DNA from: an uncultured Planctomycetales bacterium
Lineage (GTDB): Bacteria; Omnitrophota; Gorgyraeia; Zapsychrales; JBDRMG01
Reading direction: 5' to 3'
Length of the DNA: 64,000 bases
Assembly (NCBI GenBank): GCA_964478715.1
Contig: CAYZIY010000001.1
Coordinates: 149,196-213,195 of the forward strand
Of this stretch, positions 8,796 through 31,451 are shown piece by piece. Positions within the stretch are counted from its first letter, which is position 1. Every line of letters starts with the position of its first letter. Both the position numbers and the translations under genes were made by a program. A model generated the notes under the pieces. The model was not told the origin of the DNA. It did not search any database and saw only the letters and a program-made list of their open reading frames with translations.

Positions 8796-8833
8796 AAACA
8801 TGAAAGCTCTAAATCCTAAGTTCTAAGGAAAAG

Positions 8834-10048: not shown

Positions 10049-10066
10049 AGAAATCGGTTTTTGTGT

Positions 10067-10095
10067 TTGTCAAAGATTTTCGGCTTGAGTATAAT
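10067..10095 (+). promoter_or_regulatory. Near-consensus sigma70 promoter (TTGTCA-17-TATAAT) driving the major pilin gene
   Basis: ttgtca at 10067-10072, 17-nt spacer, tataat at 10090-10095; followed by RBS aggagg at 10121-10126 and ATG at 10136. Confidence 0.5.
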
Positions 10096-10135
10096 GAAAA
10101 GTAGTTCAACAAACAATATAAGGAGGAGGGACGGT

Positions 10136-10558: not shown

Positions 10559-10580
10559 AATGATCGATGAGGGTTGCTAG

Positions 10581-10618
10581 CCCCCCCCGCACCAATTCAT
10601 TGGTGCGGGGGTTTTTTT
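10581..10618 (+). terminator. Rho-independent terminator after the pilin gene
   Basis: GC-rich stem cccccgcacca / tggtgcggggg with a 6-nt loop, followed by ttttttt. Confidence 0.75.
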
Positions 10619-10664
10619 GATCTTAATATTGTGAAAGATTGATTTTCTTATTAGAATAGAGACA

Positions 10665-11501: not shown

Positions 11502-11883
11502 CAGCGGCTTTAGTTTAATCGAATTGATCATGACCATTGTGGTGGTCGGTGTGATCGCGGTTCCCCTCGCCCTTTTGATCGGTCAATACATCGATAGTGT
11601 TTTTGATTCCCATGAATATTTGATTACTATGAATCTGGCCCGCATGGAAATGGAGCGGGTTTACAATATGCCCTTTGACCGGGTTGTCTCAACGACCTTT
11701 CCTCAATATCAGGGTTACGCCTACGAGCTGGAGCGCCGGGTCACGGTTGTGCCAACCACGCTTCCGGTGCCCGCGGATTCATCGTTGAAAATCATTAAGG
11801 TTTTTGTGCGTCGGCCGCGTTCGGCTGAAACCATCCTCGGACTGTCCACCCGCCTAACGGGAGTCTTGGCCTATGGTCCGTAA
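11479..11883 (+). CDS. Minor (pseudo)pilin with prepilin-type N-terminal cleavage/methylation domain
   Basis: NSG/FSLIELIMTIVVVGVIAV with E+5. Confidence 0.75.
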   Translation: MRLFRDPNSGFSLIELIMTIVVVGVIAVPLALLIGQYIDSVFDSHEYLITMNLARMEMERVYNMPFDRVVSTTFPQYQGYAYELERRVTVVPTTLPVPADSSLKIIKVFVRRPRSAETILGLSTRLTGVLAYGP

Positions 11884-12433
11884 AAAGGCGGCCGGTTTTA
11901 CTTTAATAGAGGCCATTATGGTGATGATCATCATCGCTGTTTTGGTCGGAGGTGGTGTTGTTTTCTTAACCGGTTTTGTGCAAAACACCTTGTTTGTTTC
12001 CCATCAGCTGAGCACGGATCTTTTGGCGTCGGATTGTATGGAAATAATGATCGAAGGCGACAGTCAAGCCAAGGGATTGCGGTTTTCCCGCTCTATTTCC
12101 TGGGCCAGAGATCATATGCTTTCTTTTATTAATCAAGACGGAGACAGAGTGATCTACATCTATTCTCCCTTTAACGGAAGGATTTACCGGTGGACGCCCT
12201 ATGTTTACGGTATCATTCCGTCTTATAATAACGCAAGTTCGCCCGTGACGATTCTTGTAAATAATGATAAACTATTTACTTACTATGATGAAAATGAGCA
12301 GATTACAAGCGATCCTCTGCGTATTCGGGCTGTCAAAATCGAATTTATTGCCCAAACCGGTTCTGGAGATTACGCGCAGGGGCAGGGACAAACGCATTTG
12401 ACTTCGGCGGTGGCCGTCAAAAGACTCGAATGA
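11873..12433 (+). CDS. Minor (pseudo)pilin with prepilin-type N-terminal domain
   Basis: AAG/FTLIEAIMVMIIIAVLVGG with E+5. Confidence 0.75.
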   Translation: MVRKKAAGFTLIEAIMVMIIIAVLVGGGVVFLTGFVQNTLFVSHQLSTDLLASDCMEIMIEGDSQAKGLRFSRSISWARDHMLSFINQDGDRVIYIYSPFNGRIYRWTPYVYGIIPSYNNASSPVTILVNNDKLFTYYDENEQITSDPLRIRAVKIEFIAQTGSGDYAQGQGQTHLTSAVAVKRLE

Positions 12434-14076: not shown

Positions 14077-14654
14077 GAGAATTGATCGATACACAAAAGA
14101 AAATAGGGATAAGCATAGCGGTGCTCGTTTTGGTTCTTTTATGCGCGTGGCTGTTTCTCTATCGACCCACAGCCAGTAAGCTTAAAGAACTGAAAACACG
14201 GTTTCATGATATTGAAGCGGCTATCCGTCAGATCGAATCGATCGCTTCGCGCGGAAAAGACTTAAAAGACAGCATAATGGATCTGGAGGAAACCCGCAGC
14301 CGGCTTAAGCAGAAGTTTCCGGCAAAAGAAGAGGAGAGCCTCAGGATTCTTTCGCAATTGGCGCGCGATAATGATATTGAGGTGATCCGTTTCAAGCCGC
14401 AGAGCAAGAAGCTGTTTAGATCCGCCGGAGACAGACAAGGGGATGCTGTCATTGAGGGCAAGACATGCCGTCAGCTGTCTGTGGTTTTGGAACTGCGTTC
14501 GACCTATCATGATCTGCTTCATTATATCGATGCGCTTAAAAGTTCCGGGGCGGCTTTTTTTGTGGTCCGAAAAATGGAATTGCGCAAAAACTATACGGAC
14601 AGCCGATTGCTGAGTGTCGGATGCACCATCGATTTTTATTACTTATCCTCATGA
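14073..14654 (+). CDS. PilO/GspM-like bitopic inner-membrane pilus assembly protein
   Basis: Short cytoplasmic N-terminus, one TM (ISIAVLVLVLLCAWLFL), coiled-coil then periplasmic domain; position after the PilM-N fusion. Confidence 0.6.
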   Translation: MRELIDTQKKIGISIAVLVLVLLCAWLFLYRPTASKLKELKTRFHDIEAAIRQIESIASRGKDLKDSIMDLEETRSRLKQKFPAKEEESLRILSQLARDNDIEVIRFKPQSKKLFRSAGDRQGDAVIEGKTCRQLSVVLELRSTYHDLLHYIDALKSSGAAFFVVRKMELRKNYTDSRLLSVGCTIDFYYLSS

Positions 14655-15076
14655 AAATGACAAAAGAGAAAATTCAATATATTGCGACGGGTATTTTGTT
14701 TGTGATTCTTGTTGTGGCAATTTTCTCAGCCGTTAGATCGACAAAAAAATCCAGAACCACAAAACCTGTCGCAGGCTTTGCTTCTCAGGGCGGGACTTCC
14801 GGCGGCAGCGAAGCGAATTTCTATCAACAACTCCTCAAAGAATCTAAGACGTATAGTGCCCAGCGTGATCCTTTTTCCCGGCAATTGAGGCCGTCTGCCA
14901 AAGGGCTCTCTTTAAATGGAATTGCCTGGGATCAGAAAAATCCCACCGCCATCGTCAATAATGAGATCGTCCAGATCGGAAGCGAGATTTCCGGTTACAT
15001 AGTGGAAGATATCCTCAAAGACCGGGTGATTCTCACCTCCGAAGAACAGACGATCGAATTAATGCTGCAGCTGTAA
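14621..15076 (+). CDS. PilP/GspC-like protein
   Basis: One TM, Gly/Ser linker, C-terminal beta domain (IVNNEIVQIGSEISGYIVEDILKDRVILTSEEQTIEL) typical of PilP. The true start may be the internal Met at 14651. Confidence 0.6.
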   Translation: MHHRFLLLILMKMTKEKIQYIATGILFVILVVAIFSAVRSTKKSRTTKPVAGFASQGGTSGGSEANFYQQLLKESKTYSAQRDPFSRQLRPSAKGLSLNGIAWDQKNPTAIVNNEIVQIGSEISGYIVEDILKDRVILTSEEQTIELMLQL

Positions 15077-15535: not shown

Positions 15536-16384
15536 ATGAACAATGCATATATAGAGAAGAGACCCGTCAGTATTGCCATCGTCAACCAAAAGGGAGGATG
15601 CGGCAAGACAACGACTGCTATCAACCTGGCTTCCTGTCTGGCGCTTTCGGGCTATCAGACGCTTTTAATCGATACGGATCCGCAGGCCCAGGCCACGTTA
15701 GGCTTAGGGGTTGAGCTTCATGAGGAGTGTCTCACCCTTTATGATGCGCTCACCAAAGGCGTTCCCTTAGAAAAGATTGTGCGCTTAAGCTCTGTTATGC
15801 GCCTGGATTTGATCGGTGCCAATTCTCTTTTAGCCGGGGCGCAATTGGATATTGCCTCGAGCTTAGGGAGGGAAGCGATTCTTAGAAGCGCGTTTGACAA
15901 ACTGGCTCTTTGCGGAAAGTATGATTACGTGATTATGGACTGCCCGCCGACACTGAATCTTGTTACCGTCAATGTGTTGGCGGCTTCACAGTATGTCTTG
16001 ATTCCTTTTCAAACGCATTATTTTGCCCTGCAGGGTATCAAGGAATTGTTTCACACCATTGATACCGTCAGGGAGAGGCTCAATCCTCAGCTGGATATTT
16101 TGGGAATTCTGGTGACCCTTTTTGATCAGCGCAATAAAGTGAATCACGAGATTCTTCGGCAAATGAACGAGTATTTTAAGGAAAAGATGTTCCGGGCTAA
16201 AATCCGCAACAATGTCAAACTCTGCGAGGCTCCGATGCACCAAAAGCCGATTCATCTTTATGCGGCGCAGTCGAAAGGCGCTGCCGATTATTGGGAATTG
16301 ACCCGGGAAGTGATCGAGCGGACACAAAGACGAAAAGATCATCATGTCATCGAGCCAGTGGTGCATTATGGTTCCAGCGAATAA
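15536..16384 (+). CDS. ParA/MinD-family P-loop ATPase (CpaE/TadZ-like pilus localisation factor candidate)
   Basis: Deviant Walker A KGGCGKTTTAINLA, Walker A' and B (IDTDPQ, VIMDCPP). Confidence 0.85.
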   Translation: MNNAYIEKRPVSIAIVNQKGGCGKTTTAINLASCLALSGYQTLLIDTDPQAQATLGLGVELHEECLTLYDALTKGVPLEKIVRLSSVMRLDLIGANSLLAGAQLDIASSLGREAILRSAFDKLALCGKYDYVIMDCPPTLNLVTVNVLAASQYVLIPFQTHYFALQGIKELFHTIDTVRERLNPQLDILGILVTLFDQRNKVNHEILRQMNEYFKEKMFRAKIRNNVKLCEAPMHQKPIHLYAAQSKGAADYWELTREVIERTQRRKDHHVIEPVVHYGSSE

Positions 16385-17657
16385 AAATTCTGATTCCCAT
16401 CAGCCGGACGTTGAAAAACTTGACACCAATGTCGTTCAGTCTATTTTTGGGAAAAAGGAGAAACGCAAAAAGACATCCAGCCTTTTCGGCAGTACGTCTC
16501 AAGCACCCCAGACTGAATCTCAGAAAGATGTTGTCAAAAACACGAGAAAGATCCGATCTGCTGGTCAAGGTTTTCTTCCGGTGGGGGTGGATGTCGGCTC
16601 CAGCAGCATTAAAATCGCCCAGCTGGAAAACAAGGGCAGGCATCTGGCTATTTCCAAGCTGATTGTGGAAGAGCTGCCTCTGGAATTGGTGGAAAACCCG
16701 GCGCAAAGAGACAAGCAGTTACCCGGGATTCTTAAAAATCTCTGCAATACCTATCAGCTCCAGGGAAACGCCTATGCGGCGCTCTCAACAGAATCGGTGA
16801 TGATGAAAAATATCGCCTTGCCGCAGATGCCGCCGGCCGAATTGGAGGAGGCCCTGCGCTGGGAAGTCCGTCAAATGGCGAAGGACGATTTGGACAATAT
16901 CAGTTATGATTTTGTTGTATTAAACGAAGAACGCTCCTTTAGAGAAGAGAAAATACAGATCCTTCTGATTGCGATTCAGCATGAGGATATTTGGAAATAT
17001 ATGGACATGATGGAATTCGCAGGATTAAAACCTCTGGCGATTGAAACCGAGAGTTTTTCATTGGCCGCCGGTTTGTATTTCAATCAGATCGCCAGAAAAG
17101 GAGAGGTTGTTATCGCTTTAGATTTGGGCGCCGGAGCGGTCAAGCTCAATATCTTAAAAGACGGTAATCTTCAGTACACGCGGGTGTTGAATATTTCTGG
17201 CAATTCCCTGACGCAGACGATAAGGGACTATTGCCATGTCTCATTTACAGAAGCTGAGCGTCTCAAAAGAAAATACGGTTTCTCCAGTTTAACGCAATGC
17301 GATCAAGAGGATCAGAAGCATTATCCGCGGGATATTCCGCTTCAGGTGCGCAATGCGATCACGCTTCCCTTTGAGAAACTGGTGTCCGATATTGAGCATA
17401 CGTTTAAATATTATTCGTATCAATTGACCAAATCCCGGATCACAAACTATGACAAAATAATTTTAAGCGGCGGATCGGCCGGGTTCCCGTCGCTGGTTCC
17501 CATGATTTACGAACGGCTGCATGTGCCGGTGGAAACCGACAATCCTCTGGTGAAATTTCAGATCGCCAAAGAGGCTCTGATTGATCAGGAGAATCTGGAG
17601 AGGTCTTTTCCGCGCTTTGGGGTTGTGCTGGGATTGGCTCTGCGGGGAGCACAGTGA
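16344..17657 (+). CDS. pilM: Type IV pilus assembly protein PilM (actin-like ATPase fold) with N-terminal extension
   Basis: VGVDVGSSSIKIAQL start of the PilM domain; ALPQMPPAELEEALRWEVRQ signature; C-terminal LSGGSAGFPSL. Confidence 0.85.
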   Translation: MSSSQWCIMVPANKNSDSHQPDVEKLDTNVVQSIFGKKEKRKKTSSLFGSTSQAPQTESQKDVVKNTRKIRSAGQGFLPVGVDVGSSSIKIAQLENKGRHLAISKLIVEELPLELVENPAQRDKQLPGILKNLCNTYQLQGNAYAALSTESVMMKNIALPQMPPAELEEALRWEVRQMAKDDLDNISYDFVVLNEERSFREEKIQILLIAIQHEDIWKYMDMMEFAGLKPLAIETESFSLAAGLYFNQIARKGEVVIALDLGAGAVKLNILKDGNLQYTRVLNISGNSLTQTIRDYCHVSFTEAERLKRKYGFSSLTQCDQEDQKHYPRDIPLQVRNAITLPFEKLVSDIEHTFKYYSYQLTKSRITNYDKIILSGGSAGFPSLVPMIYERLHVPVETDNPLVKFQIAKEALIDQENLERSFPRFGVVLGLALRGAQ

Positions 17658-17666
17658 AAGGCAAGA

Positions 17667-18251
17667 ATGAAACGGATTGATTTGATTCCTAAGAAAAACA
17701 GGATAAAAAAAACAACTGCGAGCAGATCAAGCCGAGTAATCATTTTTTTGATATTGGCGATTATTGTTTCTTTTATCTGGCAGAAAACGGCGATCATACG
17801 TTATCAATACAGTATCGATAAGGCCAAGCAGGAAATCCAGACACTAAAAAAGATGCAGCGGGATAATGAAAAACTCTTTTCCTTGCTTTCGCAGCAAAGA
17901 GAGAATGTCAATCAAGAGCGGGCGCAGATCGCCCAGCGGCTGGATATTCTCCAGCAGTCGCGCAGAAAAGGTATCGCCTGGTCGAAGGTCTTGGTTGAGA
18001 TCAGTGCTATTGTGTCGAAGCGGGTTCAGCTGAAGGAACTTCAGCTTTCGGAAGAGGAAATACTTCTTAAAGGGATGGCGCAAGATCAGGAAGATGTCAG
18101 CACGCTGATGCTTTTATTGGATCAATCGGACATTTTTGCGGAAACCGGATTTCGTTTCATGCAGTCTGTCAAAAAAGAAGAAAATAAAATGCCCCAGACG
18201 GAATTTGAAGTGACGACTCAAGTTAGCCGAAGAGCATGGCAAGAAAAATAG
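17667..18251 (+). CDS. pilN: PilN-like fimbrial assembly protein
   Basis: IDLIPKK N-terminus, single TM, coiled-coil and periplasmic domain; follows pilM. Confidence 0.75.
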   Translation: MKRIDLIPKKNRIKKTTASRSSRVIIFLILAIIVSFIWQKTAIIRYQYSIDKAKQEIQTLKKMQRDNEKLFSLLSQQRENVNQERAQIAQRLDILQQSRRKGIAWSKVLVEISAIVSKRVQLKELQLSEEEILLKGMAQDQEDVSTLMLLLDQSDIFAETGFRFMQSVKKEENKMPQTEFEVTTQVSRRAWQEK

Positions 18252-18263
18252 GACATTAATCAC

Positions 18264-19172
18264 ATGGAATTTTTGGCGGGATCTCAGAAAAAATTCAATT
18301 CCTATCGCAAGGTTTATGACCGGCAGCCGGCCAGAACAAAGATCCTGATCGGTCTGCTTTTTCTGGCTTTTTGTTTCAGCCTTTTGATAAATTTTGTTTA
18401 CCGGCCCCAGCAAAGGCTTCTTGCCGATTACAGGCAGGAGATAGTCTCTTTGAAAAACAGGCAGTTGGATCTCAAGGCGAGAATACCCGATGTGGAATCG
18501 CAGAGGAAACTTTTGGAAAGAGAGCGTAATGCTTTGAATGTTTTGACCGATGAACTTAAAAATTTGGAGGCGGAACTGCCGCAGCAGGACAGCCTGCCTA
18601 CGCTTTTAGGCGAATTGATCAGGCAGACCAGGGGGGATCTGGTGGAATTTCGCTCGATCAAGCCGATGGAAGTCGGGGAAAAAGAAGCTTATGACCGCAT
18701 GAATATCGAGATGCAATTGACAGCGGATTTTTCAGGCCTGCTGAATTATTCCCGGCGGCTGGAAACAATATTTCCGTTTATGACCATCAATGAAGTAGCC
18801 ATGCAAGAAAGCAGCCAGGAGCGTTTTTCCCGTTTGGATATCAAGCTGGTGGTCTCAACTCTCTTGAATGACAAGACAACCGGCGGAGGAATCAGGGAAT
18901 TGAAAAAAGATCTCGCCTTTGAGGCTGTGATTTTTGAGAATAATCCGTTTGTCTCAAGTGTTTTTCAAAAGACCTCATTAGCCGAGGATCAAGATTATCA
19001 GATCAGCGGCATTATTTATCAAGGGCAGACCCCGACTGTTATTATCAATGACGAAGTCTTCACTGTCGGGGATTATCTCGACGGATATCAGGTGGAGAAG
19101 ATCATGAGAAATTCTGTTATCTTAAGCGATGGGTTCAGTGCCTTTGAACTCAAAATGGAAGAAAATCCGTAA
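18264..19172 (+). CDS. PilO-like protein fused to a C-terminal PilP-like domain
   Basis: TM plus coiled coil (PilO-like) followed by C-terminal YQISGIIYQGQTPTVIINDEVFTVGDYLDGYQVEKI, paralogous to the PilP-like domain at 14.9 kb. Confidence 0.65.
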   Translation: MEFLAGSQKKFNSYRKVYDRQPARTKILIGLLFLAFCFSLLINFVYRPQQRLLADYRQEIVSLKNRQLDLKARIPDVESQRKLLERERNALNVLTDELKNLEAELPQQDSLPTLLGELIRQTRGDLVEFRSIKPMEVGEKEAYDRMNIEMQLTADFSGLLNYSRRLETIFPFMTINEVAMQESSQERFSRLDIKLVVSTLLNDKTTGGGIRELKKDLAFEAVIFENNPFVSSVFQKTSLAEDQDYQISGIIYQGQTPTVIINDEVFTVGDYLDGYQVEKIMRNSVILSDGFSAFELKMEENP

Positions 19173-19206: not shown

Positions 19207-20601
19207 ATGAGAATCATTAAGAATGTTATGTATCTTGCGGCGGCGGTTTTGATCTTGATTGTTGCCCCGATCGCTCTTTGCGCGGATGATCAACAACTGG
19301 TGAGTCTGGATTACAAGGAAGCCAATCTTTCCAGCGTTCTGCGCGCTTTATCTTATTCCTATGATTTGAATCTGGTGGCCACCAGAGATGTGACCGGAAC
19401 GGTGACGGTGAATCTGCGCGATGTGACGGTGGATGAAGCGCTTCAAGCGATTTTAAGTGTTAACGGTTATGCTTTTACCCGCAAGGGGAATCTTATTTAT
19501 ATCACGCCGGGGCCGGGGACGGAAGGGATCGATTTGGCGACCGAATCGATCCGTCTGAGCTATTTGACCGCGGCCGAGGCCCAGCGTCTCTTGGGGCGGG
19601 TGATTTCCGGCAAAGGCGATATCCAGATCAATGAGGCGACCAATAGTTTAGTGATCACGGACTTTCCGGCCAGTATTCAAAAGGTGAAAGAGGTTCTTGT
19701 CTCCATTGATGTGGCGCCGGCGCAGGTTTTGATCGAATCTAAGATCGTCGATATACAGGATAAGGCCTATGAAAACTTCGGGACGACCTACACATTAACC
19801 TATGATCCCAAGGGATCGACGCCGGGTTTGTTTGACCGGGTCACCAGTTATGATGAATCAATGAGTTCAACAACGACCCTGGCCGGACCGTCTTCGGCAT
19901 TATCCGGCGGGCAGTTTACCTTAACCACCACCATGAAAGATTTCGAGGCAACCGCTACGCTTGATGCGCTGATTCAGGCTAATCAGGCGCGCCTCTTGGC
20001 CTCACCTTCTATTGCGACTCTAAACGGCAAAGAGGCGCGCATTATTATCGGTGAGAAATTTCCCTATAAAGAAAAAACGCAAACCACAACCGGCACCACC
20101 GAAACCACGCGTTTTATCGATGTGGGGACAACTTTAAAAGTTACACCGATGGTTTCACCCGACGGTTGGATCACGATGAATGTGCACCCGGAGGTGTCTT
20201 CGGTGTCGGCCGCGCTTGATGCCGGGCCGCGGATCACCACCCGCGAGGCCGATGCGACCGTGCGGGTAGCCAACGGGCAGACGATTATCATCGGCGGTTT
20301 GATTAATCGCAAAGACGATAAAATCAAAGGCGGGATTCCGTTTCTGCGGGCGATTCCCGTGATCGGGTTTCTGTTTTCCAAACGCAGCAGTGATTTCGAG
20401 GAGACCGAGCTGACGGTTTTTATCACACCCTATATTATCAAGAATCCCCGGCAGATTGCTCAAAAAGATCAGATTTCTTCTCAGGAGGTCTTTTTTGATG
20501 TGAGTCGGGCCGATTATTTACAGAAGGATGCGTATCTGAATCTTCGGGTGATGGAGAAAAAAGAAAAGAATCTGGAAATCGAGACGCAGAGAGCGCAATA
20601 A
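19207..20601 (+). CDS. Secretin (PilQ/GspD family) outer-membrane channel
   Basis: Signal peptide, N-domains, conserved secretin core LLASPSIATLNGKEARIIIGEKFPY ... GGLINRKDDKIKGGIPFLRAIPVIGFLF. Confidence 0.9.
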   Translation: MRIIKNVMYLAAAVLILIVAPIALCADDQQLVSLDYKEANLSSVLRALSYSYDLNLVATRDVTGTVTVNLRDVTVDEALQAILSVNGYAFTRKGNLIYITPGPGTEGIDLATESIRLSYLTAAEAQRLLGRVISGKGDIQINEATNSLVITDFPASIQKVKEVLVSIDVAPAQVLIESKIVDIQDKAYENFGTTYTLTYDPKGSTPGLFDRVTSYDESMSSTTTLAGPSSALSGGQFTLTTTMKDFEATATLDALIQANQARLLASPSIATLNGKEARIIIGEKFPYKEKTQTTTGTTETTRFIDVGTTLKVTPMVSPDGWITMNVHPEVSSVSAALDAGPRITTREADATVRVANGQTIIIGGLINRKDDKIKGGIPFLRAIPVIGFLFSKRSSDFEETELTVFITPYIIKNPRQIAQKDQISSQEVFFDVSRADYLQKDAYLNLRVMEKKEKNLEIETQRAQ

Positions 20602-20603
20602 CG

Positions 20604-21827
20604 ATGCCGCAATACGTTTATAAGGCCAGAGATAATGAAGGGTTGCCGATCCGCGGGGCGGTGGATGCGGTCAGTGAGCTGGCGGTGGTGACTAATCTCA
20701 GGAGTTTGGGCTATCGGGTCGTCTATATCGAGGAACAAAGCGAGGCGAAACGTCTTTGGCAGGACTTGCTTAAAAGGATGAGCCGCATCACCCAGGCTGA
20801 AGTCATCCTTTTTACCCGTCAGCTTTCATCTATGCTTAAAAGCGGTCTGCCGATTACAGACGCTTTGACCAGTTTGATTCAGCAAAGCAAGAATGAAACT
20901 TTTGTTCGCGTGCTTCAAAACGTGCTTAAAGATATAGAGAAAGGCGAGAGTTTTTCCCAGGCTTTGAGCCATCATCCGCGGGTTTTTAACACGCTGTATG
21001 TCAATATGGTTAAAGCCGGAGAGACAGCGGGCGTGCTGCATGAAGTCTTGGATCGACTGGTTGTTTTAAAGACTCAGGAGATGGATGCCCTGATGCGGGT
21101 TCGCTCGGCCATGGTTTATCCGGTGATTCTGGTAACGGCGGCTATTTTTATCGTCGGTTTTCTGATGGCTGTGATTATCCCCAAGTTCGTGGTGATTTTT
21201 GAAACCTATGAAGCCAAGCTTCCTCTGGCCACCCGGGTGTTGATGGGCTTGAGTTTCGCGTTAAAAGATTTCTGGTTTGTTTTTTTGCTGGTTATGGCTT
21301 TGGGCGTTTTCTGGTTTAAGAGATATACGCAGGATGAAGAGGGGCGCTACCAGTTTCATCATTTATTGATCAAGCTTCCGGTCTTTGGAGATTTTTATGT
21401 CAAGATGATCGTCGCCCGCTTTACCCGGATTTTGGGCGTGCTGGTGCGCAGCGGCGTTACGATTTTGGAGGCTCTGGCCGTGACGGAAAAAACGATCAAC
21501 AATGTGGTGATCTCCCGTGTGATCGAAAAGATTCATGTCGCGGTCAGCGAAGGGCAGTCTTTGAGCGAACCGTTTCAGGCCAGCGGGATTTTTCCTCCGA
21601 TGGTGATTCAGATGATCACCGTCGGGGAAAAAAGCGGACGCATGGATCAAATGCTCGCGGAAATTTCCGCCTATTACGATCAGGAGACTGAATATATCAT
21701 CAAGAATGTGACAACCATTTTAGAGCCGGTGTTATTGCTGACGATGGGGGGATTAGTGGCCTTTATCGCGCTGGCGGTTTTGTTGCCGATTTTTAACCTG
21801 ATAAAAGTTTTTCGCGGAGGGATTTAA
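20604..21827 (+). CDS. PilC/GspF-family inner-membrane platform protein (copy 2)
   Basis: Paralog of 8834-10048 with the same two-repeat architecture. Confidence 0.88.
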   Translation: MPQYVYKARDNEGLPIRGAVDAVSELAVVTNLRSLGYRVVYIEEQSEAKRLWQDLLKRMSRITQAEVILFTRQLSSMLKSGLPITDALTSLIQQSKNETFVRVLQNVLKDIEKGESFSQALSHHPRVFNTLYVNMVKAGETAGVLHEVLDRLVVLKTQEMDALMRVRSAMVYPVILVTAAIFIVGFLMAVIIPKFVVIFETYEAKLPLATRVLMGLSFALKDFWFVFLLVMALGVFWFKRYTQDEEGRYQFHHLLIKLPVFGDFYVKMIVARFTRILGVLVRSGVTILEALAVTEKTINNVVISRVIEKIHVAVSEGQSLSEPFQASGIFPPMVIQMITVGEKSGRMDQMLAEISAYYDQETEYIIKNVTTILEPVLLLTMGGLVAFIALAVLLPIFNLIKVFRGGI

Positions 21828-21840
21828 AGGAAGCCCGGAT

Positions 21841-22446
21841 TTGCAAGACGAAGTGAACGCAAGCCTGTCGGCTGACTTGATTCCGTTTCTTACGGCGGGC
21901 GGGATAAGAGGAGAAAGGAAATTCAAGAATATGAATAATTCAAGAAATAGAAAAGCGGGTTTGGCGGGTCAATGTTTCTCGTGTAGTCCCCAAAACGCGG
22001 GCCGGATGCAGGGGTTTACCCTCATCGAAATTCTCATAGTGATCAGCATCATTGCCATTTTGGCTTCAACGATTATTCCCAATTTTGTCGGCTTTGATGC
22101 TGAAGCCCGTGTTTCGGCCACCCGGACCAATCTGGAGTCGATCCGCACCCGGATTAATTTATTCAGGGCCAAGGAAGGACGCTACCCTGATTCGCTGGGA
22201 GAGTTGACGACTACAACCTACAATGACGTGGGTGTAAAGAAGGCCTACCTGAGGAAGATCCCGTCCGAGACGATCAGTAGTTCACGGGGCAATAATGATT
22301 ATGCGGATCAAACGCAAGAAGAGACTTTAGGCGGGACCGGCGGATGGATTTATTTCACCGATACCGCCGAGGTGAAGGTCAATGTAGCCAAAGAGCTGGG
22401 GCGGCGGTGGGGAGATTATGCTGATGAAATTCCTTCAGAATGGTAA
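21841..22446 (+). CDS. GspG-like pseudopilin / pilin with prepilin-type N-terminus
   Basis: MQG/FTLIEILIVISIIAILASTIIPNF with E+5, GspG-like following region. Annotated start gives a long leader; the true start may be an internal Met such as 21931. Confidence 0.8.
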   Translation: MQDEVNASLSADLIPFLTAGGIRGERKFKNMNNSRNRKAGLAGQCFSCSPQNAGRMQGFTLIEILIVISIIAILASTIIPNFVGFDAEARVSATRTNLESIRTRINLFRAKEGRYPDSLGELTTTTYNDVGVKKAYLRKIPSETISSSRGNNDYADQTQEETLGGTGGWIYFTDTAEVKVNVAKELGRRWGDYADEIPSEW

Positions 22447-22832: not shown

Positions 22833-24641
22833 ATGGTTGAAAAAAGACGATTGCTGGGAGAATATTTAATCGAGCAGGGGATTATCAGTCCCGACCAGCT
22901 CAAGACGGCGATCGAGGAGGGCAAGCGCTCGAATCGCAAGATCGGGGACGTGCTGATCAAGCTGGGTTACGCCAAGGAAGACGATATTGTAAAGGCCTTA
23001 AGCGAGCAGTTGGGGATTCCCTTTATCGATGTCGACACCTACCAGTTTGATCCTGCAAGCGTGGCTTTGATTCCTTTTGATGCGGCTTTTAAGTTGCGCG
23101 TGATCGGGGTTTACCAAATCGCGAATTCTCTGACCGTGGCCATGACCGACCCGCTCAATGTCACGGTGATCGACGAGCTCGAGAAGCTGACGGGGCTGAC
23201 GATCAACCCTGTTTTTGCCACCCCGACGGGAATCAAAAAAGCGATTCAGAAATATTACTCTCGCGCGGGGTCCTCTGCGACCGGTTTGGGTGTGTCGGGG
23301 GGCTCGGGTACTGCGGCCACTTCGGACTCTGCGGAAACGCTGGACATTTCGGGTGCTTCAGGTACTTCGGGTGTTTCAGGAGTAGCAGACGCGACTGGCG
23401 AGGCTGGCGCGGCTAAAACGGGCGGAATCTCCGCCGGCCGAAGCGACGACTTACCGAAACTAAGAGAACAGGCCGCCCAGGCGCCTGTGATCAAGCTGGT
23501 CAATAAAATCATCGAAGACGCCGTAACGCTTAAGGCCAGCGACGCGCACTTAGAGCCGCAGGACAAGCGATTTCTCTGCCGCTACCGGGTCGACGGAATT
23601 TTGCAGGATTTTATTGAACTGAAAAAAGACCTGGAGCTGGCCACGATCTCACGAATCAAAATCATGGCCAACATCAACATTGCCGAAAAGCGCCTGCCTC
23701 AGGACGGCCGGATTCAAACTCAGGTGAAAGGCAAAGAGATCGATTTGAGAGTGGCCACCTTTCCTACTATTCACGGAGAGCACGTGGCGATTCGCGTTTT
23801 AGATAAATCGACCGGGATACTCAGTTTAGACGAACTGGGTCTGAAAGGGGATCTCTTGAGACAATTTCAGTCTTTGATCACCAAACCGCACGGGCTGTTT
23901 CTGGTGACCGGTCCCACCGGAAGCGGAAAATCCACGACCTTGTATTCGGTTTTGAACACCGTCAATGACAAAAAGAAAAATATTATCACGCTCGAAGATC
24001 CGGTGGAGTACACGATTGAGTATATTCATCAGTCGCAGGTCAATGTAAAAGCCGGTTTGACTTTTGCCGTGGGTTTGCGCTCGATTGTCCGCCTGGATCC
24101 CGACATTATTATGATCGGAGAAATCCGGGACCGGGAGACGGCCGAAATCGCCATTCACGCGGCTTTAACCGGGCACCTGGTTTTCTCGACGCTTCACACA
24201 AATGACGCGCCCAGCGCCTGCGCCCGTCTGATCAATATCGGCTTGGAGTCTTATCTGTTGGCCAGTTCCCTGACCGGCGTGGTGGCCCAGCGGCTGGTCA
24301 GAAAATTGTGCGATCAATGCAAAAAACCTCACAAGCCTGAGCCCCGGGAAATTGAAAGTCTCGGGATGAATCCGTCCGATTTTCAAAACGCACAGATCTT
24401 CCGGGAAAACGGTTGCAAGGCCTGCCGGCAGACCGGCTACAGCGGACGGATCGGTATCTTTGAGATTCTTGTTCCCAATGAAAAAATACGCACACTGATT
24501 ACCCAAAAGGCCTCTTCCAAAGACCTGATGAAAGAAGCCAGGACCTTAAATATGACAACCCTGCTGGAAGACGGTATAGAAAAAATCCGCCTAGGAATCA
24601 CATCGATTTCGGAAATTTTAAGGATTACCGAAGAATCATAA
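22833..24641 (+). CDS. GspE/PilB-family secretion ATPase (copy 2) with MshEN-like N-terminal tandem motifs and a G/S/A/T-rich linker
   Basis: Walker A GPTGSGKSTT, tetracysteine CDQC...CKAC; N-terminal tandem RLLGEYLIEQGII...Q and RKIGDVLIKLGYA...Q motifs; low-complexity insert about 23265-23450. Confidence 0.9.
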   Translation: MVEKRRLLGEYLIEQGIISPDQLKTAIEEGKRSNRKIGDVLIKLGYAKEDDIVKALSEQLGIPFIDVDTYQFDPASVALIPFDAAFKLRVIGVYQIANSLTVAMTDPLNVTVIDELEKLTGLTINPVFATPTGIKKAIQKYYSRAGSSATGLGVSGGSGTAATSDSAETLDISGASGTSGVSGVADATGEAGAAKTGGISAGRSDDLPKLREQAAQAPVIKLVNKIIEDAVTLKASDAHLEPQDKRFLCRYRVDGILQDFIELKKDLELATISRIKIMANINIAEKRLPQDGRIQTQVKGKEIDLRVATFPTIHGEHVAIRVLDKSTGILSLDELGLKGDLLRQFQSLITKPHGLFLVTGPTGSGKSTTLYSVLNTVNDKKKNIITLEDPVEYTIEYIHQSQVNVKAGLTFAVGLRSIVRLDPDIIMIGEIRDRETAEIAIHAALTGHLVFSTLHTNDAPSACARLINIGLESYLLASSLTGVVAQRLVRKLCDQCKKPHKPEPREIESLGMNPSDFQNAQIFRENGCKACRQTGYSGRIGIFEILVPNEKIRTLITQKASSKDLMKEARTLNMTTLLEDGIEKIRLGITSISEILRITEES

Positions 24642-24655
24642 GACCACAGGAATGC

Positions 24656-27600
24656 ATGAAGATCAACAACTGCCGCTTAATGTATTGCTTGCTCAGCCGA
24701 CCCTGCGGTTGCAGAAATGCTTTTTGTCGGCTTTGGCCCCGATTATTTATGGCAGGGGCTGTCTTGCTTTTGATCTCTTTGTGCCTGCCTGAAAATCTTT
24801 ACGCTTACTTGACCGGTGACGCGTGGGATTACGAGCAACAGATCACGGTCACCAATCCCAATGCCGCGTCGCTCAGCAATTACCAGATTCTTGTCGCATT
24901 CGACAGCGCATCCTTGATTACGGCCGGACAGATGGCCGCAGACGGCCGGGATCTGCGATTTACCTCAGCGCAGAATGACGACGCGACCCTGTTGGATTAC
25001 TGGATCGAATCCGGCACGATCAATACGGATGCCACCTATGTTTGGGTTAAGGTGCCTTCACTGGCGGCCTCATCATCCGCGAACATTTACATGTATTACG
25101 GCAACGGAGCCGCACCCGCAGTCAGTTCGCTTGTCTCAACTTTCCGTTCCAGCGATCTCTTTTTATTGACAACCCGTGCCACCGACCAGACCCTGGCCGG
25201 CTACACGGATAATCACGATGAATTTGACGAAATTATTACGCGCATCGGGACGCCCGATTTCGCCGTAGACGGTTCCGGCTATGTGAATGCGGTCAATCAC
25301 AATGCGAATCCCTACGGCAGTTCGGAATACTATTTTTCCCGGTACCGTTTCTTATTTGTCCCTTCTTTAACAGGCACATATTATTTTGGGACCAATTCTG
25401 ACGATGCTTCCGAAATCCTGATCAACAGCGCCGATCAGGACTTAACGCATAATGTGATCGCTTCCTGGTACGGCGGGCATGGAATATCCGGCAGTTTTAA
25501 TCACAACAGTCCGGTTTCTTTAAACGCCGGCTACGGCTATTGGATCGAATACCGGATGACCGAATGGCGCGGCGGGCAGCTCAGCCGGATGGGCATTTTG
25601 CCGCCGGCCGGTTCGTGGCAGATCGTTAACAGCACCAATTTTAGCGGACAGCTGTTCGCCCGAGAGTATGCCGACCAAGAACCGACGGTCAGTTTTCCGC
25701 CTTCCAAACTGGTCTTTACAACCAGCGAGCAAACTATTAATACAGACGGCGTTTCGGGTGTGATCACCATTGAGACTCAGGATCAATTCAGCCATGTGGC
25801 GGTCGCTTCAGCTGATACCGCCATCACGCTAAGCTCGAACTCTTCAACAGGCCAATTTAGCTTAACGGCGGATCCGTTTACGCCTGTCAGTTCCGCGATC
25901 ATTTCTTCCGGTGAAAGTTCTGTCAATCTTTATTATCGCGACAGTTCTTCGGGAACTTTTACCATTTCCGTTTCATCAGCCGGCTTGACCCCGGCGAGTC
26001 AGACAATGAATGTGCAGAATCTAAGCGCGCAGTGGGACCATCGGATTCCCGTTATTATCAATAATGCGGATTGCACTGACGCGCTTAACGATTATCAGGT
26101 TTTAGTGACATTAAACACAGCCGCGATTATCGCCCAGGGAAACATGCAGGCCGACGGAGCGGATATCCGTTTTACGGATTCCGATGACGCGACCTATTTA
26201 TCCTACTGGATCGAATCCGATACCATCAATTCGTCTGATACCTATATTTGGGTAAAAGTTCCCTCCGTCCCGGCTTCGGCGAGCAAGACGATTTATTTAT
26301 ACTACGGAAATGCTTCCGCTACTGAGGTTAGCTCCATTTCTCAGACTTTTAGCGCGGATCAGATCTATTTGTTAACCACGCGCGCTACGGACAGCGGTCT
26401 GGTTGGCTATAGCGACGATCACTCGGAATTTGACCAGATTGTCGACAGGATCGGGCAAGCTGGCTTCACTATTGACGGTACAGGGTATGTCGAGCGCATC
26501 GATCATAATGCCAATCCGTTTGGAAGCGATGAATATTATTTTTCCCGCTACCGTTTTCTCTTTACGCCTGCGGTAACCGGCGAATACTATTTCGGCACCG
26601 ACAGCGACGACGCTTCCGAGATTTTGGTTAACCGCGCGGACGAAGACCAGGCGCACAATGTGATCGCTTCCTGGTACGGCGGGCACGGCACGGCCGGTAA
26701 TTTCAACCATAATGGGGCTGTGAATCTGGAGGCGGACAAAGGCTATTGGGTCGAATACCGCATGACCGAATGGCGCGGCGGGCAGCTCAGCCGGATGGGT
26801 GTTTTGGAACCGGGTTCCTCCTTTAAAACACTGACCGCGGATAATTTTCCGGGGCAAATCTTCACGCGGAAATACTCAACCTGTCTGCCGAGCTCAACCG
26901 AGCAATTTCCGATCACCCGGATTGCCTTTATATCTCCATCGCAATCCATCTATGAAGATCGGGTTTCAAATCAGATAACGATCGAGACGCAGGATGTAAA
27001 CGGGGATCCGGTCGCGGTCACAGAAGACACAACGATCAATCTGCAAACGACATCTTCGAAAGGAGAATTCAGTCTTAATGAGTCACCGTTTCTTGCCGTT
27101 CATTCCGTTACGATCAGCGCCGATTCAAGCAGCGCGAGTTTTTATTACCGGGACCGTGAAGCAGGCTCCTATACCTTAAGCGCATTGGAGTCTCCCGGTC
27201 GCGGCTGGGACGACGGCCAGCAGACTATTGAAGTTCTTGTTTTTGATTATATCGGAAGCTACCAATATCCCGTGACGATCACCAATCCCAACGCTGAGGA
27301 TCTATCCGATTGCCAGGTGAAAGTGACCGTGGACACGGCAAGCTTGATTGCAGAAGGGAAAATGCTGGCCGATGGCTCGGATATCCGCTTTACCGACGAG
27401 GACGATGCGACGCTGTTGTCTTATTGGATCGAATCCGATACAATGAACACCGCGCAAACTTATCTGTGGGTCAGAGTTCCGTTTCTTGCGTCTTTATCCA
27501 ATAAAACCATCTATATGTATTACGGTAATCCAGGGGCAGCCGCGGTCAGTTCGATAGCTTCGACATTTCAAGAGGACCAGATTTATCTGACGACCACCCG

Positions 27601-29800
27601 CGCTACCAATGCCGCTTTGGCCGGCTACACCGATAACCATAATGAATTTGATCAGATCATCGCGGGGATCGGAGCGGCCGGTTTTGAAATTGACGGATCC
27701 GGTCTGGTGGATGCCCTGGACCACAATGCCAATCCGTTTGGAAGCGATGAATATTATTTTTCCCGCTACCGTTTTCTCTTTACGCCTGCGGTAACCGGCG
27801 AATACTATTTCGGCACCGACAGCGACGACGCTTCCGAGATTTTGGTTAACCGCGCGGACGAAGACCAGGCGCACAATGTGATCGCTTCCTGGTACGGCGG
27901 GCACGGCACGGCCGGTAATTTCAACCATAATGGGGCTGTGAATCTGGAGGCGGACAAAGGCTATTGGGTCGAATACCGCATGACCGAATGGCGCGGCGGG
28001 CAGCTCAGCCGGATGGGTGTTTTGCCGCCGGCCGGTTCGTGGCAGACGCTAAACAGCAGTCATTTCGCAGGCGAATTTTATTGCCGCAACTGCACCGACA
28101 GCAATCTCACCGTGACCGAAGGCGAGGAGATCGGGAATATTGCCAAGCTGGAATTCACCACTTTGCCGCAAACCGTTGTTCAGGGTTTTTCCACGGAATT
28201 GATGTCCGTTCAGACACAGGATGCATCCAGCGTGGCCAGGCCCGTTACTGCCGATACACAAATATTTCTCGAATCCTCGTCTTTGCTCGGGCAGTTCGCG
28301 CCGGAAGACGATCCGGCTAACTGGAGCGCCGATAATACCTTAACGGTTACGATTCCCTCCGGTCAAGATACGGCACGCTTTTACTACAGGGATTTTGAAG
28401 TTGGTCTTCCGACGATCTCCGCGTCCGAATTTCCAACTCAGGGATGGCAGGAGGCCACCCAGCAGCAGACCATTAACAGCGCGGTCAATACATTTCAGGT
28501 GACAGCCGGTGCGGCTCAGGTGACAGGGGAAGCGTTTGCGCTTTCGATCACCGCCATTGACCAAAACGGTAACGTGGCCGTTGATTACAATGATCCGGTT
28601 GATCTTTCCGTGAATTATGTGAGTCCGTTAACAGGCACGGGAGCGCTTTCCGTTGCCGGCGCTACGGCCTTTGTCAACGGGATCGCGGTTTTGAATAATG
28701 TTACTTATTCGAACTGCGGGGTCATCACCATGACGGTAACCAAAAGCGATGATCCGGCTAAAACCGGTTCATCTAGCAATATTTCTTTTGCGCCGGATTC
28801 GTTTTCTTTAGAGTTGTCCGGCCTGGATTTCCTAGCGGCCCACACGGTCAATAAATCCTTCACGCTGAGCGCTACCGCCTTGGATGCGGCGGGAGCTGTT
28901 TGCACAGGCTATCAAGGCCCGGCCTCGCTTTCGGTCAATACTATTGATCCGCCGGCTGATCAGGGGGCCAGCCTTTCGCCCGAGCAATTGGGGAACACGC
29001 TTTGGAATGAAGGAACAGCCGAGATCGCGGAGGCCACTTTCGATCGCTACGGCGAGGTTTCTTTGGTCATCAGCGATGACAATTTATCAACACAACAGGG
29101 GACATCGCAGGAGATTGTTTTTCTTCCCAAAGATTTCCTGGTCAACCTTTCGGATCCTCTGCCGGATAGAGATTTTTATTATACCCATGAACCCATTGAT
29201 ATTTCTGTTGGAGCCCGGGATGAAAACAATGAGCCCGTAGTTAATTATCAGGGGACCGTGGGCTTTGAGGGAACCAGTCTCAGTCTTCCCGAGACTTATA
29301 CATTCATCGATGACGAAGACGGCCGTCATGAGTTTTTGGATATCAGCAGTTCGTTGAGCTTTGAGGAAAAAACTTTAAATGTTTTTGATACGCAGTTTTC
29401 TTTTGTGCAAGGTGAGAGCGAGCCGATCACCGTCAAAGAGGCCCGGATTCAAGTTCTTCCTAACCGGGGTCCGGTGGGGAATCTGCCTTTGACTATTCAG
29501 ATTATTGACGAGGATGATCAGGTGATTGTTGAAGATAACAGCACCTTCTTTACCGTTGATCTTGAGGAATTCATTGATGACGGTTCGGCCACCTCTCATG
29601 CGCTCGGCAATCCCGTTGTGGTCACCGAAGGGACGGCCATGATTATTCTTAATGATGACCAGGCCGAGCAGGTGACGGTCACGCCTGATTCCACGCCCGG
29701 TCTTAAGCCCGTTGCCGGCATCGCCACTTTCGGAACGGTTTCAGGAACAGGGCTGGGTATCCAAATTTATCGAGAGCTAAAAGATGAGGTTGAACAATAA
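24656..29800 (+). CDS. Giant secreted protein (1714 aa): three tandem modules of DUF2341-like domain + PA14 domain, then bacterial Ig-like domains
   Basis: Three repeats each with ..DG.DIRFTD.DDAT.L.YWIES...Y.WVKVP..........IY.YYGN followed by a PA14-like core YYFSRYRF.F.P..TG.YYFGT.SDDASEIL.N; hydrophobic N-terminal region. Start codon uncertain (an internal Met at 24749 begins a signal-peptide-like segment). Confidence 0.8.
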   Translation: MKINNCRLMYCLLSRPCGCRNAFCRLWPRLFMAGAVLLLISLCLPENLYAYLTGDAWDYEQQITVTNPNAASLSNYQILVAFDSASLITAGQMAADGRDLRFTSAQNDDATLLDYWIESGTINTDATYVWVKVPSLAASSSANIYMYYGNGAAPAVSSLVSTFRSSDLFLLTTRATDQTLAGYTDNHDEFDEIITRIGTPDFAVDGSGYVNAVNHNANPYGSSEYYFSRYRFLFVPSLTGTYYFGTNSDDASEILINSADQDLTHNVIASWYGGHGISGSFNHNSPVSLNAGYGYWIEYRMTEWRGGQLSRMGILPPAGSWQIVNSTNFSGQLFAREYADQEPTVSFPPSKLVFTTSEQTINTDGVSGVITIETQDQFSHVAVASADTAITLSSNSSTGQFSLTADPFTPVSSAIISSGESSVNLYYRDSSSGTFTISVSSAGLTPASQTMNVQNLSAQWDHRIPVIINNADCTDALNDYQVLVTLNTAAIIAQGNMQADGADIRFTDSDDATYLSYWIESDTINSSDTYIWVKVPSVPASASKTIYLYYGNASATEVSSISQTFSADQIYLLTTRATDSGLVGYSDDHSEFDQIVDRIGQAGFTIDGTGYVERIDHNANPFGSDEYYFSRYRFLFTPAVTGEYYFGTDSDDASEILVNRADEDQAHNVIASWYGGHGTAGNFNHNGAVNLEADKGYWVEYRMTEWRGGQLSRMGVLEPGSSFKTLTADNFPGQIFTRKYSTCLPSSTEQFPITRIAFISPSQSIYEDRVSNQITIETQDVNGDPVAVTEDTTINLQTTSSKGEFSLNESPFLAVHSVTISADSSSASFYYRDREAGSYTLSALESPGRGWDDGQQTIEVLVFDYIGSYQYPVTITNPNAEDLSDCQVKVTVDTASLIAEGKMLADGSDIRFTDEDDATLLSYWIESDTMNTAQTYLWVRVPFLASLSNKTIYMYYGNPGAAAVSSIASTFQEDQIYLTTTRATNAALAGYTDNHNEFDQIIAGIGAAGFEIDGSGLVDALDHNANPFGSDEYYFSRYRFLFTPAVTGEYYFGTDSDDASEILVNRADEDQAHNVIASWYGGHGTAGNFNHNGAVNLEADKGYWVEYRMTEWRGGQLSRMGVLPPAGSWQTLNSSHFAGEFYCRNCTDSNLTVTEGEEIGNIAKLEFTTLPQTVVQGFSTELMSVQTQDASSVARPVTADTQIFLESSSLLGQFAPEDDPANWSADNTLTVTIPSGQDTARFYYRDFEVGLPTISASEFPTQGWQEATQQQTINSAVNTFQVTAGAAQVTGEAFALSITAIDQNGNVAVDYNDPVDLSVNYVSPLTGTGALSVAGATAFVNGIAVLNNVTYSNCGVITMTVTKSDDPAKTGSSSNISFAPDSFSLELSGLDFLAAHTVNKSFTLSATALDAAGAVCTGYQGPASLSVNTIDPPADQGASLSPEQLGNTLWNEGTAEIAEATFDRYGEVSLVISDDNLSTQQGTSQEIVFLPKDFLVNLSDPLPDRDFYYTHEPIDISVGARDENNEPVVNYQGTVGFEGTSLSLPETYTFIDDEDGRHEFLDISSSLSFEEKTLNVFDTQFSFVQGESEPITVKEARIQVLPNRGPVGNLPLTIQIIDEDDQVIVEDNSTFFTVDLEEFIDDGSATSHALGNPVVVTEGTAMIILNDDQAEQVTVTPDSTPGLKPVAGIATFGTVSGTGLGIQIYRELKDEVEQ
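26507..26806 (+). repeat. 300-bp direct repeat copy A inside the giant gene (PA14 core of module 2)
   Basis: Identical base-for-base to 27725-28024 by direct comparison. Confidence 0.9.
27725..28024 (+). repeat. 300-bp direct repeat copy B inside the giant gene (PA14 core of module 3)
   Basis: Identical to 26507-26806; offset 1218 bp. Confidence 0.9.
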
Positions 29801-30212
29801 GAACCGGGGTTTTACCTTTATCGAGCTGTTGATCACTCTTACGGTTTTAGCGATTTCTTTTCTGCCTTTGATGAATATGTATACCGTGATGATTGACCAA
29901 TCGGTATTTACCAGTGATCTGACATCAGCCCGCTATCTCGCTCAGGAGGAAATGGAGAAAATCAAGAATCGCAATCTCACGGTTCAACAGCTTAAAGAAA
30001 TGGGCGACCGCTGGCATCCGCCGCTTAATGAAAAAGCGCTCGTGTTAAACAAAGAACGCTGGAGGGTTTTAAGGACCATTGAGCCCACAGAACCCTTAAC
30101 GGTTAAAGTTCAGGTCTTCAAAGAAGCCGAACGGATTTCCCGAAAGGAACCCAAGCCGGTTGCCAGTCTTATCACCCTGATCGAAGATTTCCACTGGGCC
30201 ATTACCGATTAA
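29784..30212 (+). CDS. Minor pseudopilin with prepilin-type N-terminus
   Basis: NRG/FTFIELLITLTVLAISFLPL with E+5. Confidence 0.75.
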   Translation: MRLNNKNRGFTFIELLITLTVLAISFLPLMNMYTVMIDQSVFTSDLTSARYLAQEEMEKIKNRNLTVQQLKEMGDRWHPPLNEKALVLNKERWRVLRTIEPTEPLTVKVQVFKEAERISRKEPKPVASLITLIEDFHWAITD

Positions 30213-30218
30213 ACCAGA

Positions 30219-31451
30219 ATGCGAAAGACAAACAAAAACATTAACGGCGGTTTGATTTTAATAGAACTATTGATCGCTATTTCTATTGCGGCGGTTTTAA
30301 TCGGGGTCGTGGCCCTCACCATGAAAACAGTTTTTGATATCTATCATTTCGTGCAAAACGAAATGATACTACAGAAAGCCCTCGATGATTCATTGAAGAC
30401 GCTTTCCGACGGAGATTTCCGCAACTATGGGATCAAAGATTCCCTGGAAATCATTAAAGCCGGCCAAACATATCTTTCATTTGTCCCTCCCTGGGTCGAT
30501 GACAGCCACCGGGTTGACAATATGGCCGATCAGAGATTTAGACTCTCTGCTCCCTTTAAGGCCGGTTCCGGACTTCCTCTGGCCGAGGCCAGACCGTATG
30601 GCAAACAGCCCTGGCAGGTTGTGCCGCTTATTTTCTTTTTAAGAGAAACATCCAACGGGGCAATGGAAAAAGACCAGGCGATTATTGCCGCCGAACTCCC
30701 CCCGGGTACTCCGGTGCGCTTTATCTATCATCCCGACACCCGTACTATTCCTGATGCGAGAATGACTCTCCGCTTTTCCCCAGAGACCATCGCGCGCACC
30801 TACAGACAAAAAAAAGAGGTTTTCCCCAAAAGTGATTTCGGCCCTGTGGCCTTCAGAGATGTTTCATTGAAATATTTTGACAATGCCAACAACAGAATGG
30901 AAGCCGGCGCTTCAGGGGAAATCCCTGCGGCCGACATCCCTAAAATCACAGCTGTCAAGTTGAGTATCACGGCTCAGGCGGGGGGCAAGTCAAAGACGGG
31001 TCATGTTTTTATCAATTTGCGCAATACCCGTTCGGTGGGTTCCGGCTTGATTATCCGAAAGGGCGCCACGCTGCCTCTTCCGAATTCCCGCGATATCCGC
31101 GCTTTTAGTCTGCACAACATTATTGGCGTAAAGCCCGGCGGCCTTATCTCTTTATTGGCTCAGTCTGATGAAGGCAACAGCTGGAAAATCAATATCGAGC
31201 TGGATAGTGAGGGTAACAGGGAGCTGATCAAAGGTTATGGGGTGGAATATCCGGCCGGTTCCAATGTTTCGAGCCAGACACTTAATTTAAACACGGATCT
31301 TCCAATCAACTTCCTGAGCCTGGGAGGAAACGGCCGTTATGATTATGACCTTGACGATAATGTGGAAGATGTCGTAAACTTAAAAGGAAAGGTCAAGTTG
31401 ACGGTTTTGGAGATGGACGCCCAAGGGGCCGCGCTTTTCATCCGGCCGTGA
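30219..31451 (+). CDS. Large (410 aa) pseudopilin-like protein (GspK/PilY-like candidate)
   Basis: Prepilin-like N-terminus NGG/LILIELLIAISIAAVLIGVVAL with E+5; large periplasmic domain. Confidence 0.6.
   Translation: MRKTNKNINGGLILIELLIAISIAAVLIGVVALTMKTVFDIYHFVQNEMILQKALDDSLKTLSDGDFRNYGIKDSLEIIKAGQTYLSFVPPWVDDSHRVDNMADQRFRLSAPFKAGSGLPLAEARPYGKQPWQVVPLIFFLRETSNGAMEKDQAIIAAELPPGTPVRFIYHPDTRTIPDARMTLRFSPETIARTYRQKKEVFPKSDFGPVAFRDVSLKYFDNANNRMEAGASGEIPAADIPKITAVKLSITAQAGGKSKTGHVFINLRNTRSVGSGLIIRKGATLPLPNSRDIRAFSLHNIIGVKPGGLISLLAQSDEGNSWKINIELDSEGNRELIKGYGVEYPAGSNVSSQTLNLNTDLPINFLSLGGNGRYDYDLDDNVEDVVNLKGKVKLTVLEMDAQGAALFIRP

Follow-up and report, generated by a model that had tools for sequence, protein, structure and literature searches.

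How can two modules of a single gene, whose DNA otherwise matches at only about 60-65% of positions, come to share 300 consecutive bases without one difference? The question is raised by a giant gene in a stretch of 64,000 nucleotides (hereafter the window; positions 149,196 to 213,195 of contig CAYZIY010000001.1, assembly GCA_964478715.1) from an uncultured Planctomycetales bacterium, which the GTDB lineage places in the Omnitrophota. The gene encodes a secreted DUF2341 protein built of three modules, and the perfect repeat forms the core of the head domain in modules 2 and 3. The reading favoured here, to which a probability of about 0.8 is attached, is that the repeat is the product of a recent intragenic gene conversion between these two heads.

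The protein begins with a hydrophobic, signal-like N-terminal segment, followed by the three modules and by a C-terminal array of immunoglobulin-like (Ig-like) domains. Pfam recognizes DUF2341 (PF10102) in three stretches (E=9.7e-60), and NCBIfam has no model either for this protein or for the 410-amino-acid minor pilin encoded nearby. The module borders were drawn by self-alignment (Table 1), and each module is made up of a DUF2341 segment (D), a head (X) about 185 amino acids long and an Ig-like segment (I) of some 113 amino acids. Outside the repeated patch, modules 2 and 3 range between 45% and 77% identity at the DNA level.

Copies A and B of the repeat are equal at 300 of 300 bases and lie 1218 bp, or 406 codons, apart, each beginning at codon position 1 of the open reading frame (ORF); the sequence-only reading, which had described a perfect in-gene repeat at this offset, is thereby borne out at every position. 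The match breaks at the very next base, at the 5' end and the 3' end alike. When the gene is compared with itself at the same offset, identity amounts to 60-66% across the 400 bp upstream of the repeat, and downstream it drops to 48% and then to background. This is the longest exact direct repeat in the window. The remaining ones of at least 22 nt measure 38, 29 and 27 nt and all lie within the giant gene, and no additional copy of the tract is present in the window on either strand. Tandem Repeats Finder reports nothing here, because the longest period it handles is 500. The G+C content is 51% in the giant gene, 55% in the tract and 46% in the window.

The distribution of variable sites among the modules sets the patch apart from its surroundings. 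In a codon alignment of the three modules, comprising 631 variable columns and examined by a Sawyer-type run test with 10,000 site permutations, modules 2 and 3 agree along 77 consecutive variable sites (P<1e-4), and none of their other runs of agreement exceeds 4 variable sites. The proportion of synonymous differences (pS, Nei-Gojobori) lies between 0.67 and 0.84 in all regions and module pairs, that is, at synonymous saturation. The one exception is the tract when modules 2 and 3 are compared, with 0 differences at about 64 synonymous sites. The flanks of both copies are diverged, 5' as well as 3'. At the position of the tract, module 1 encodes a peptide that is 73% identical, yet its pS is 0.67, and selection at the level of the protein therefore does not account for the identity of the two copies.

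The age of the framework in which this patch is embedded can be judged from distant homologues. In a neighbour-joining tree drawn for the I segments of the giant protein together with those of its 13 best-matching homologues, the segments cluster by position and not by protein. When seven proteins with three modules each are compared with one another, the best match across proteins falls on the same position in 91 of 126 comparisons of I segments and in 83 of 126 comparisons of D segments, where one third would be expected by chance. In the same set, the best match overall is found inside the own protein in 15 of 21 heads, as compared with 3 of 21 D segments and none of 21 I segments. Since the I segments are closest to those at the same position in distant homologues, the three-module layout must be old, and by these comparisons the scaffold is older than the split from relatives that are 40-50% identical. 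A block without differences, set between anciently diverged and position-specific flanks, is what a conversion patch would leave. The synonymous sites, the diverged flanks and the position-specific Ig-like segments are thus all in line with the earlier proposal of a recent conversion rather than a simple tandem duplication.

What the patch encodes is best seen at the level of the fold. The Pfam PA14 model (PF07691) scores 40.4 bits over the whole protein (cut-off 24), and a single head alone reaches 18.8 bits, under the cut-off; a comparison by sequence of the head domain with solved structures gives no match. An AlphaFold2 model of amino acids 863-1154, covering D and X of module 3 and built from a 15-sequence alignment, has a predicted local distance difference test (pLDDT) score of 88.3 and a predicted template modelling (pTM) score of 0.86. 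A fold search with this model retrieves 6m8m, 6x8d, 5j6y, 4lhk, 2xjp and 4d3w at probability 1.0, with target-normalized template modelling scores (TM-scores) of about 0.5-0.69. The best match is the PA14 domain of an RTX adhesin (6m8m; target-normalized TM-score 0.69, root-mean-square deviation (rmsd) 3.2 Å), and the matches include entries of the Marinomonas protein MpIBP and the A domains of the yeast adhesins Flo1, Flo5 and Epa. According to the model, the head is a PA14-fold lectin-like domain, and the label of a PA14 core, which the repeat had been given from its sequence, holds in this sense.

The predicted fold resembles the PA14 domains of RTX adhesins (Marinomonas primoryensis MpIBP; 6m8m, 5j6y, 6x7j) and of the yeast Flo/Epa proteins with an rmsd of about 3.1-3.2 Å over some 185 columns, whereas sequence identity to them is just 10-16%, and ligand binding by the head is putative. 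The tract (amino acids 1024-1123 in module 3) spans the core of the predicted fold, including the motif SDDASE, which appears in all three modules; in an alignment of homologous heads, S194, S198 and E199 are invariant and D196 is nearly so. The SDD motif is positioned at what we take to be the site of the calcium-binding Asp-Asp pair of lectin-type PA14 domains. Judging from its domains and its gene neighbourhood, the giant protein is presumably a multivalent carbohydrate-binding adhesin encoded in a type IV pilus operon.

Several other processes could produce a perfect repeat, and each has some observation in its favour. A recent tandem duplication of the whole module, of which the 300 bp would be the last remnant of original identity, would agree with an offset of exactly one module length. 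Yet the flanks are synonymously saturated on either side, each Ig-like segment of modules 2 and 3 resembles its positional counterparts in distant homologues more closely than it resembles the other of the pair, and decay would not leave a zero-difference block beside blocks with 35-40% differences; such a duplication is very improbable. Selection on the protein or nucleotide sequence without recombination, acting for example on an embedded RNA or an antisense gene, might be suspected from the fact that no part of the head is more conserved than the one which the patch encodes and that a 161-amino-acid ORF on the opposite strand (26372-26857, -) overlaps copy A. This ORF is a mechanical listing without support as a gene, however, and all of the approximately 64 synonymous sites are identical although pS for module 1 is 0.67, so that codons are evidently not fixed by selection on the protein; selection of this type is barely credible as the source of the repeat. 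Programmed variation, with one copy acting as the template of the second in the manner of diversity-generating retroelements or silent cassettes, would suit a target that is the predicted ligand-binding, lectin-like domain of a surface protein. Here, however, the copies are identical, with no differences at adenines, and both are expressed parts of one ORF; there is no third copy in the 64 kb on either strand and no tandem array (a reverse transcriptase was not specifically searched for). The chance that the repeat arose in this way is very slight indeed.

An artefact of assembly or polishing is of another nature, as it would concern the record and not the gene; the sequence-only reading had raised this concern, and with good reason. 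Similar cores could have been homogenized by multi-mapped reads or by the popping of assembly bubbles, or the number of modules could be wrong where the assembler took the shortest path through the repeat. An exact repeat of 300 bp is longer than the usual k-mer sizes, the contigs of relatives break in the same part of the gene, and the giant protein is absent from a collection of 15 billion proteins in which the adjacent ATPase of the same organism is found at 100%; the source annotation may lack the giant gene as an intact product. On the other hand, homogenization by mis-mapping requires copies that are nearly identical to begin with, and would hide a few differences at most; a jump from about 63% to 100% identity, with edges sharp to the single base, is beyond its reach. 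In addition, the reading frame is preserved, each copy has flanks unique to it, not one N occurs in the window, and the same kind of repeat occurs in the independent assembly of a distant relative, L001. With two copies, the order flank, repeat, spacer, repeat, flank is the sole path, and additional spacer-repeat units would escape notice. An artefact is considered unlikely as the cause of the repeat.

Some points nevertheless weigh against an intragenic conversion and the wider picture drawn from it. Polishing could have erased a few real differences between the copies, and the module count could be wrong. The giant protein has no close orthologue in the collections searched: the best match is 51% identical in the protein collection and 47% in a genome scan, and of two metagenome scans one gave nothing close and the other at most 53%, or at most 48% over the full-length region. 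The collections likewise yielded no other strain or assembly of this organism. Any assignment of donor and recipient, or dating of the patch against an orthologue, would have to draw on relatives no closer than about 51%. The neighbouring ATPase is in a similar position, its best relative beyond the same-organism record being 65% identical, and the named relatives of both proteins come from metagenome-assembled genomes of Omnitrophota, of the Planctomycetes-Verrucomicrobia-Chlamydiae (PVC) group and of Planctomycetia. By these relatives, the source organism would appear to be allied to Omnitrophota or the wider PVC group. Furthermore, a recurrent homogenization of heads is deduced from patterns among distant relatives, and the adhesin role, the sugar binding and the association with pili are proposed solely on the grounds of domains and gene neighbourhood.

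The involvement of module 1 in these exchanges is less clear than that of the other two. Its segment is homologous to the patch, as had been noted from the letters, yet its divergence is about one position in four (74.3% identity, 77 mismatches) and not one in five. The sequence-only reading had further taken the module-1-like sequence 3' of copy B as an indication of mosaic conversion tracts. The likeness itself is real, since the 22 bases that follow copy B match module 1 at 22 positions and module 2 at 9, and the identity of modules 1 and 3 is about 0.9 over 25541-25630. This stretch contains 13 variable sites and is significant by site permutation (P<1e-4), a test that is inflated here if module 2 alone diverged; a run test on synonymous codons gives P=0.16, which is not significant. 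As proof of a second tract the likeness is therefore suggestive only, and an older conversion between modules 1 and 3 at the 3' edge of copy B is possible on this sequence evidence. If such a tract were real and reached into the 3' end of the patch, it would give a weak hint that module 3 was the donor and module 2 the recipient. A participation of module 1 had also been considered from the 38-nt run common to the three modules and was set aside, the codon-run permutation being not significant (P about 0.1).

The conversion reading implies two exchange points, at most 302 bp apart, with the bounding mismatches at 26506 and 26807. Between them, a heteroduplex or a template switch would have copied about 300 bp between the heads of modules 2 and 3, through homologous recombination or template switching between modules of the same or of sister chromosomes. 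The event may have been seeded at short exact runs of 29 and 38 nt, common to the three modules, in conserved motifs; candidate seeds are NVIASWYGGHG and MTEWRGGQLSRMG, both of which lie within the tract. The outcome would be two identical putative sugar-binding cores in one polypeptide. At the same time, the 300 bp would offer RecA-type recombination an in-frame substrate by which one module of 406 codons could be deleted or duplicated. Variation in length by recombination across the repeat, which the sequence-only reading had raised together with phase variation, is plausible, given an in-frame offset and the existence of relatives with two and with three modules. Of phase variation there is no sign, as no simple-sequence tract or other switch was seen, though none was specifically searched for.

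Comparison with the family suggests that the heads have a history different from that of the scaffold. A hidden Markov model (HMM) of the giant protein's head finds no match in the 13 closest homologues, whereas the HMMs of the D and I segments find every module. The heads fall into four mutually unrelated types, with one type per protein in all of its modules; one type weakly resembles H-type lectins and the others have no Pfam match. Within proteins, identity is higher between X segments than between I segments in 24 of 27 module pairs. DUF2341 followed by a PA14-like head is a two-domain unit common in other proteins.

Exact repeats are also found in other members of the family. L001, a relative of about 40% identity from an independent Joint Genome Institute (JGI) metagenome, carries a perfect repeat of 860 bp (8094-8953 and 9333-10192), which spans D and X of its two modules and ends at the border of X and I. 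Shorter exact repeats occur in proteins with different N-terminal architectures, namely L024 (5633-6313; 127, 84 and 56 nt at an offset of 399) and L017 and L018 (3977/4466 and 2719/3208, respectively; 51 nt at an offset of 489). The contigs L004, L007, L013 and L022 have their 5' ends within the last head, 37-79 amino acids ahead of the last I segment, which is where an assembly would be expected to break on a repeat. This suggests that head repeats routinely break short-read assemblies of the family.

Members of the family carry either two or three modules, and the two-module relatives retain the first or the second I type beside the last one, a pattern which crossing-over deletions within D-X would yield. 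The patch looks like the newest episode of a long-running homogenization of the heads, in which the D and Ig-like parts stay position-specific. A broader view can be offered tentatively, as a possibility that is on the whole rather doubtful: the DUF2341 giants may be head-display scaffolds, in which an old D/Ig frame bears two or three copies of one lectin-like head, and a new head type (PA14-like, H-type-lectin-like or other jelly-roll-like) is spread to every position by intragenic conversion, the present patch being this process caught in the act. If true, such scaffolds would let uncultivated Omnitrophota and PVC-group bacteria switch and multimerize their binding specificity.

The type of event is already known, as concerted evolution in a repeat-containing adhesin-like gene, and it is the family that is unstudied. 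In the repeat adhesins of yeast (FLO/EPA, with PA14 heads) and in the repeat proteins of streptococci and staphylococci, as here, a DNA patch of perfect identity is found among diverged repeats of one gene and offers an in-frame recombination substrate; the present protein is likewise adhesin-like, with a predicted PA14-fold lectin domain. It differs in that the homogenized part is the putative ligand-binding head, present three times per polypeptide, and not a stalk repeat; in that the repeats are 1.2-kb modules of three domains, otherwise about 63% identical; and in that the host is an uncultivated Omnitrophota-like bacterium. For the periscope proteins, high DNA identity between repeats has been proposed to permit recombination within the gene and thereby changes in length (Whelan et al. 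2021, PMC8201768), and the coexistence of two- and three-module members in the present family is reminiscent of this. The periscope proteins, however, consist of long arrays of whole domains, highly identical throughout, which make up a rod that bears a single binding domain at its distal end, whereas the present protein has three modules, with perfect identity confined to 300 of 1218 bp and located in the head.

For users of the genome, the patch is a warning sign: short-read assemblies of this gene family break at such a site or may give a wrong number of modules, and a module of 406 codons is likely to be lost or gained in frame there. It is also an instance of concerted evolution, clean and datable, that affects the putative ligand-binding heads of a giant protein linked to a pilus, and it comes from a lineage that has no cultured members. 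Most of its interest lies in the family-wide pattern of homogenized, exchangeable heads on an old scaffold. The presence of one head type per protein on a scaffold that is old and position-specific suggests that binding specificity is exchanged and homogenized as a cassette.

Table 1. Features of the giant gene and of the pilus-like operon around it, with positions in the window.
Feature	Position	Strand	Description and evidence
Giant gene, 1714-aa (amino acid) secreted DUF2341 protein	24656-29800	+	ORF; Pfam; module alignment; HMM segmentation
Module 1	24806-26011	+	aa 51-452; head X1 about 25136-25693; alignment and HMM segmentation
Module 2	26012-27229	+	aa 453-858; head X2 about 26342-26899; alignment and HMM segmentation
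Module 3	27230-28471	+	aa 859-1272; head X3 about 27560-28117; alignment, HMM segmentation, AlphaFold2 model
Single-copy C-terminal Ig-like array, 442 aa	28472-29797	+	41-54% identical to nine aligned homologues
Repeat copy A	26507-26806	+	aa 618-717, core of head X2; contains SDD motif
Repeat copy B	27725-28024	+	aa 1024-1123, core of head X3
Module 1 segment homologous to the patch	25301-25600	+	74.3% identical, 77 mismatches
Exact runs shared by module 1 with the patch	25451-25479 (29 nt); 25556-25593 (38 nt)	+	
27-nt stretch across the 3' edge of copy B	28020-28046	+	equals module 1 at 25596-25622, unlike module 2
PilM	16344-17657	+	upstream gene of type IV pilus-like operon
PilN	17667-18251	+	upstream gene of type IV pilus-like operon
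PilO	18264-19172	+	upstream gene of type IV pilus-like operon
Secretin	19207-20601	+	upstream gene of type IV pilus-like operon
PilC/GspF	20604-21827	+	upstream gene of type IV pilus-like operon
Pilin	21841-22446	+	upstream gene of type IV pilus-like operon
MshE-type ATPase	22833-24641	+	upstream gene of type IV pilus-like operon
Two downstream genes	29784-30212 and 30219-31451	+	prepilin N-terminal methylation motifs

The genomic setting of the giant gene is that of a type IV pilus-like operon (Table 1), in which the two downstream genes with methylation motifs probably encode minor pilins. The gene order of the operon is matched in the distant relative L001 (about 40% identical), the equivalents of the minor pilins included. 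Proteins with DUF2341 have been tied to type IV pilus loci before, and a role as pilus-tip adhesins has been hypothesized for them without experiments (Makarova et al. 2016, PMC4858521). The giant protein resembles those proteins in its DUF2341 domains and in the location of its gene, between the pilus ATPase and the minor-pilin genes of a PilMNO-secretin-PilC operon; it differs from them in that its N terminus, as read from the sequence, has no pilin motif of its own.

The last 20 or so amino acids of the giant protein (29740-29797) read G-x-G-I/V-Q/N-x-Y/W/F-R-E-L/V-K, followed by a few acidic or basic residues. This tail motif is kept in 10 of 10 aligned family members, with R434 and E435 invariant, and might represent a sorting or docking signal. 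The first minor-pilin gene begins at 29784, so that its first 17 nt (29784-29800) are also the last of the giant gene, an arrangement that suggests translational coupling. Immediately upstream of the operon there is another set of pilus or type II secretion-like genes (7101-15076), among them those for a PilB/GspE-type ATPase (7101-8795) and for a PilM-like protein (12430-14076).

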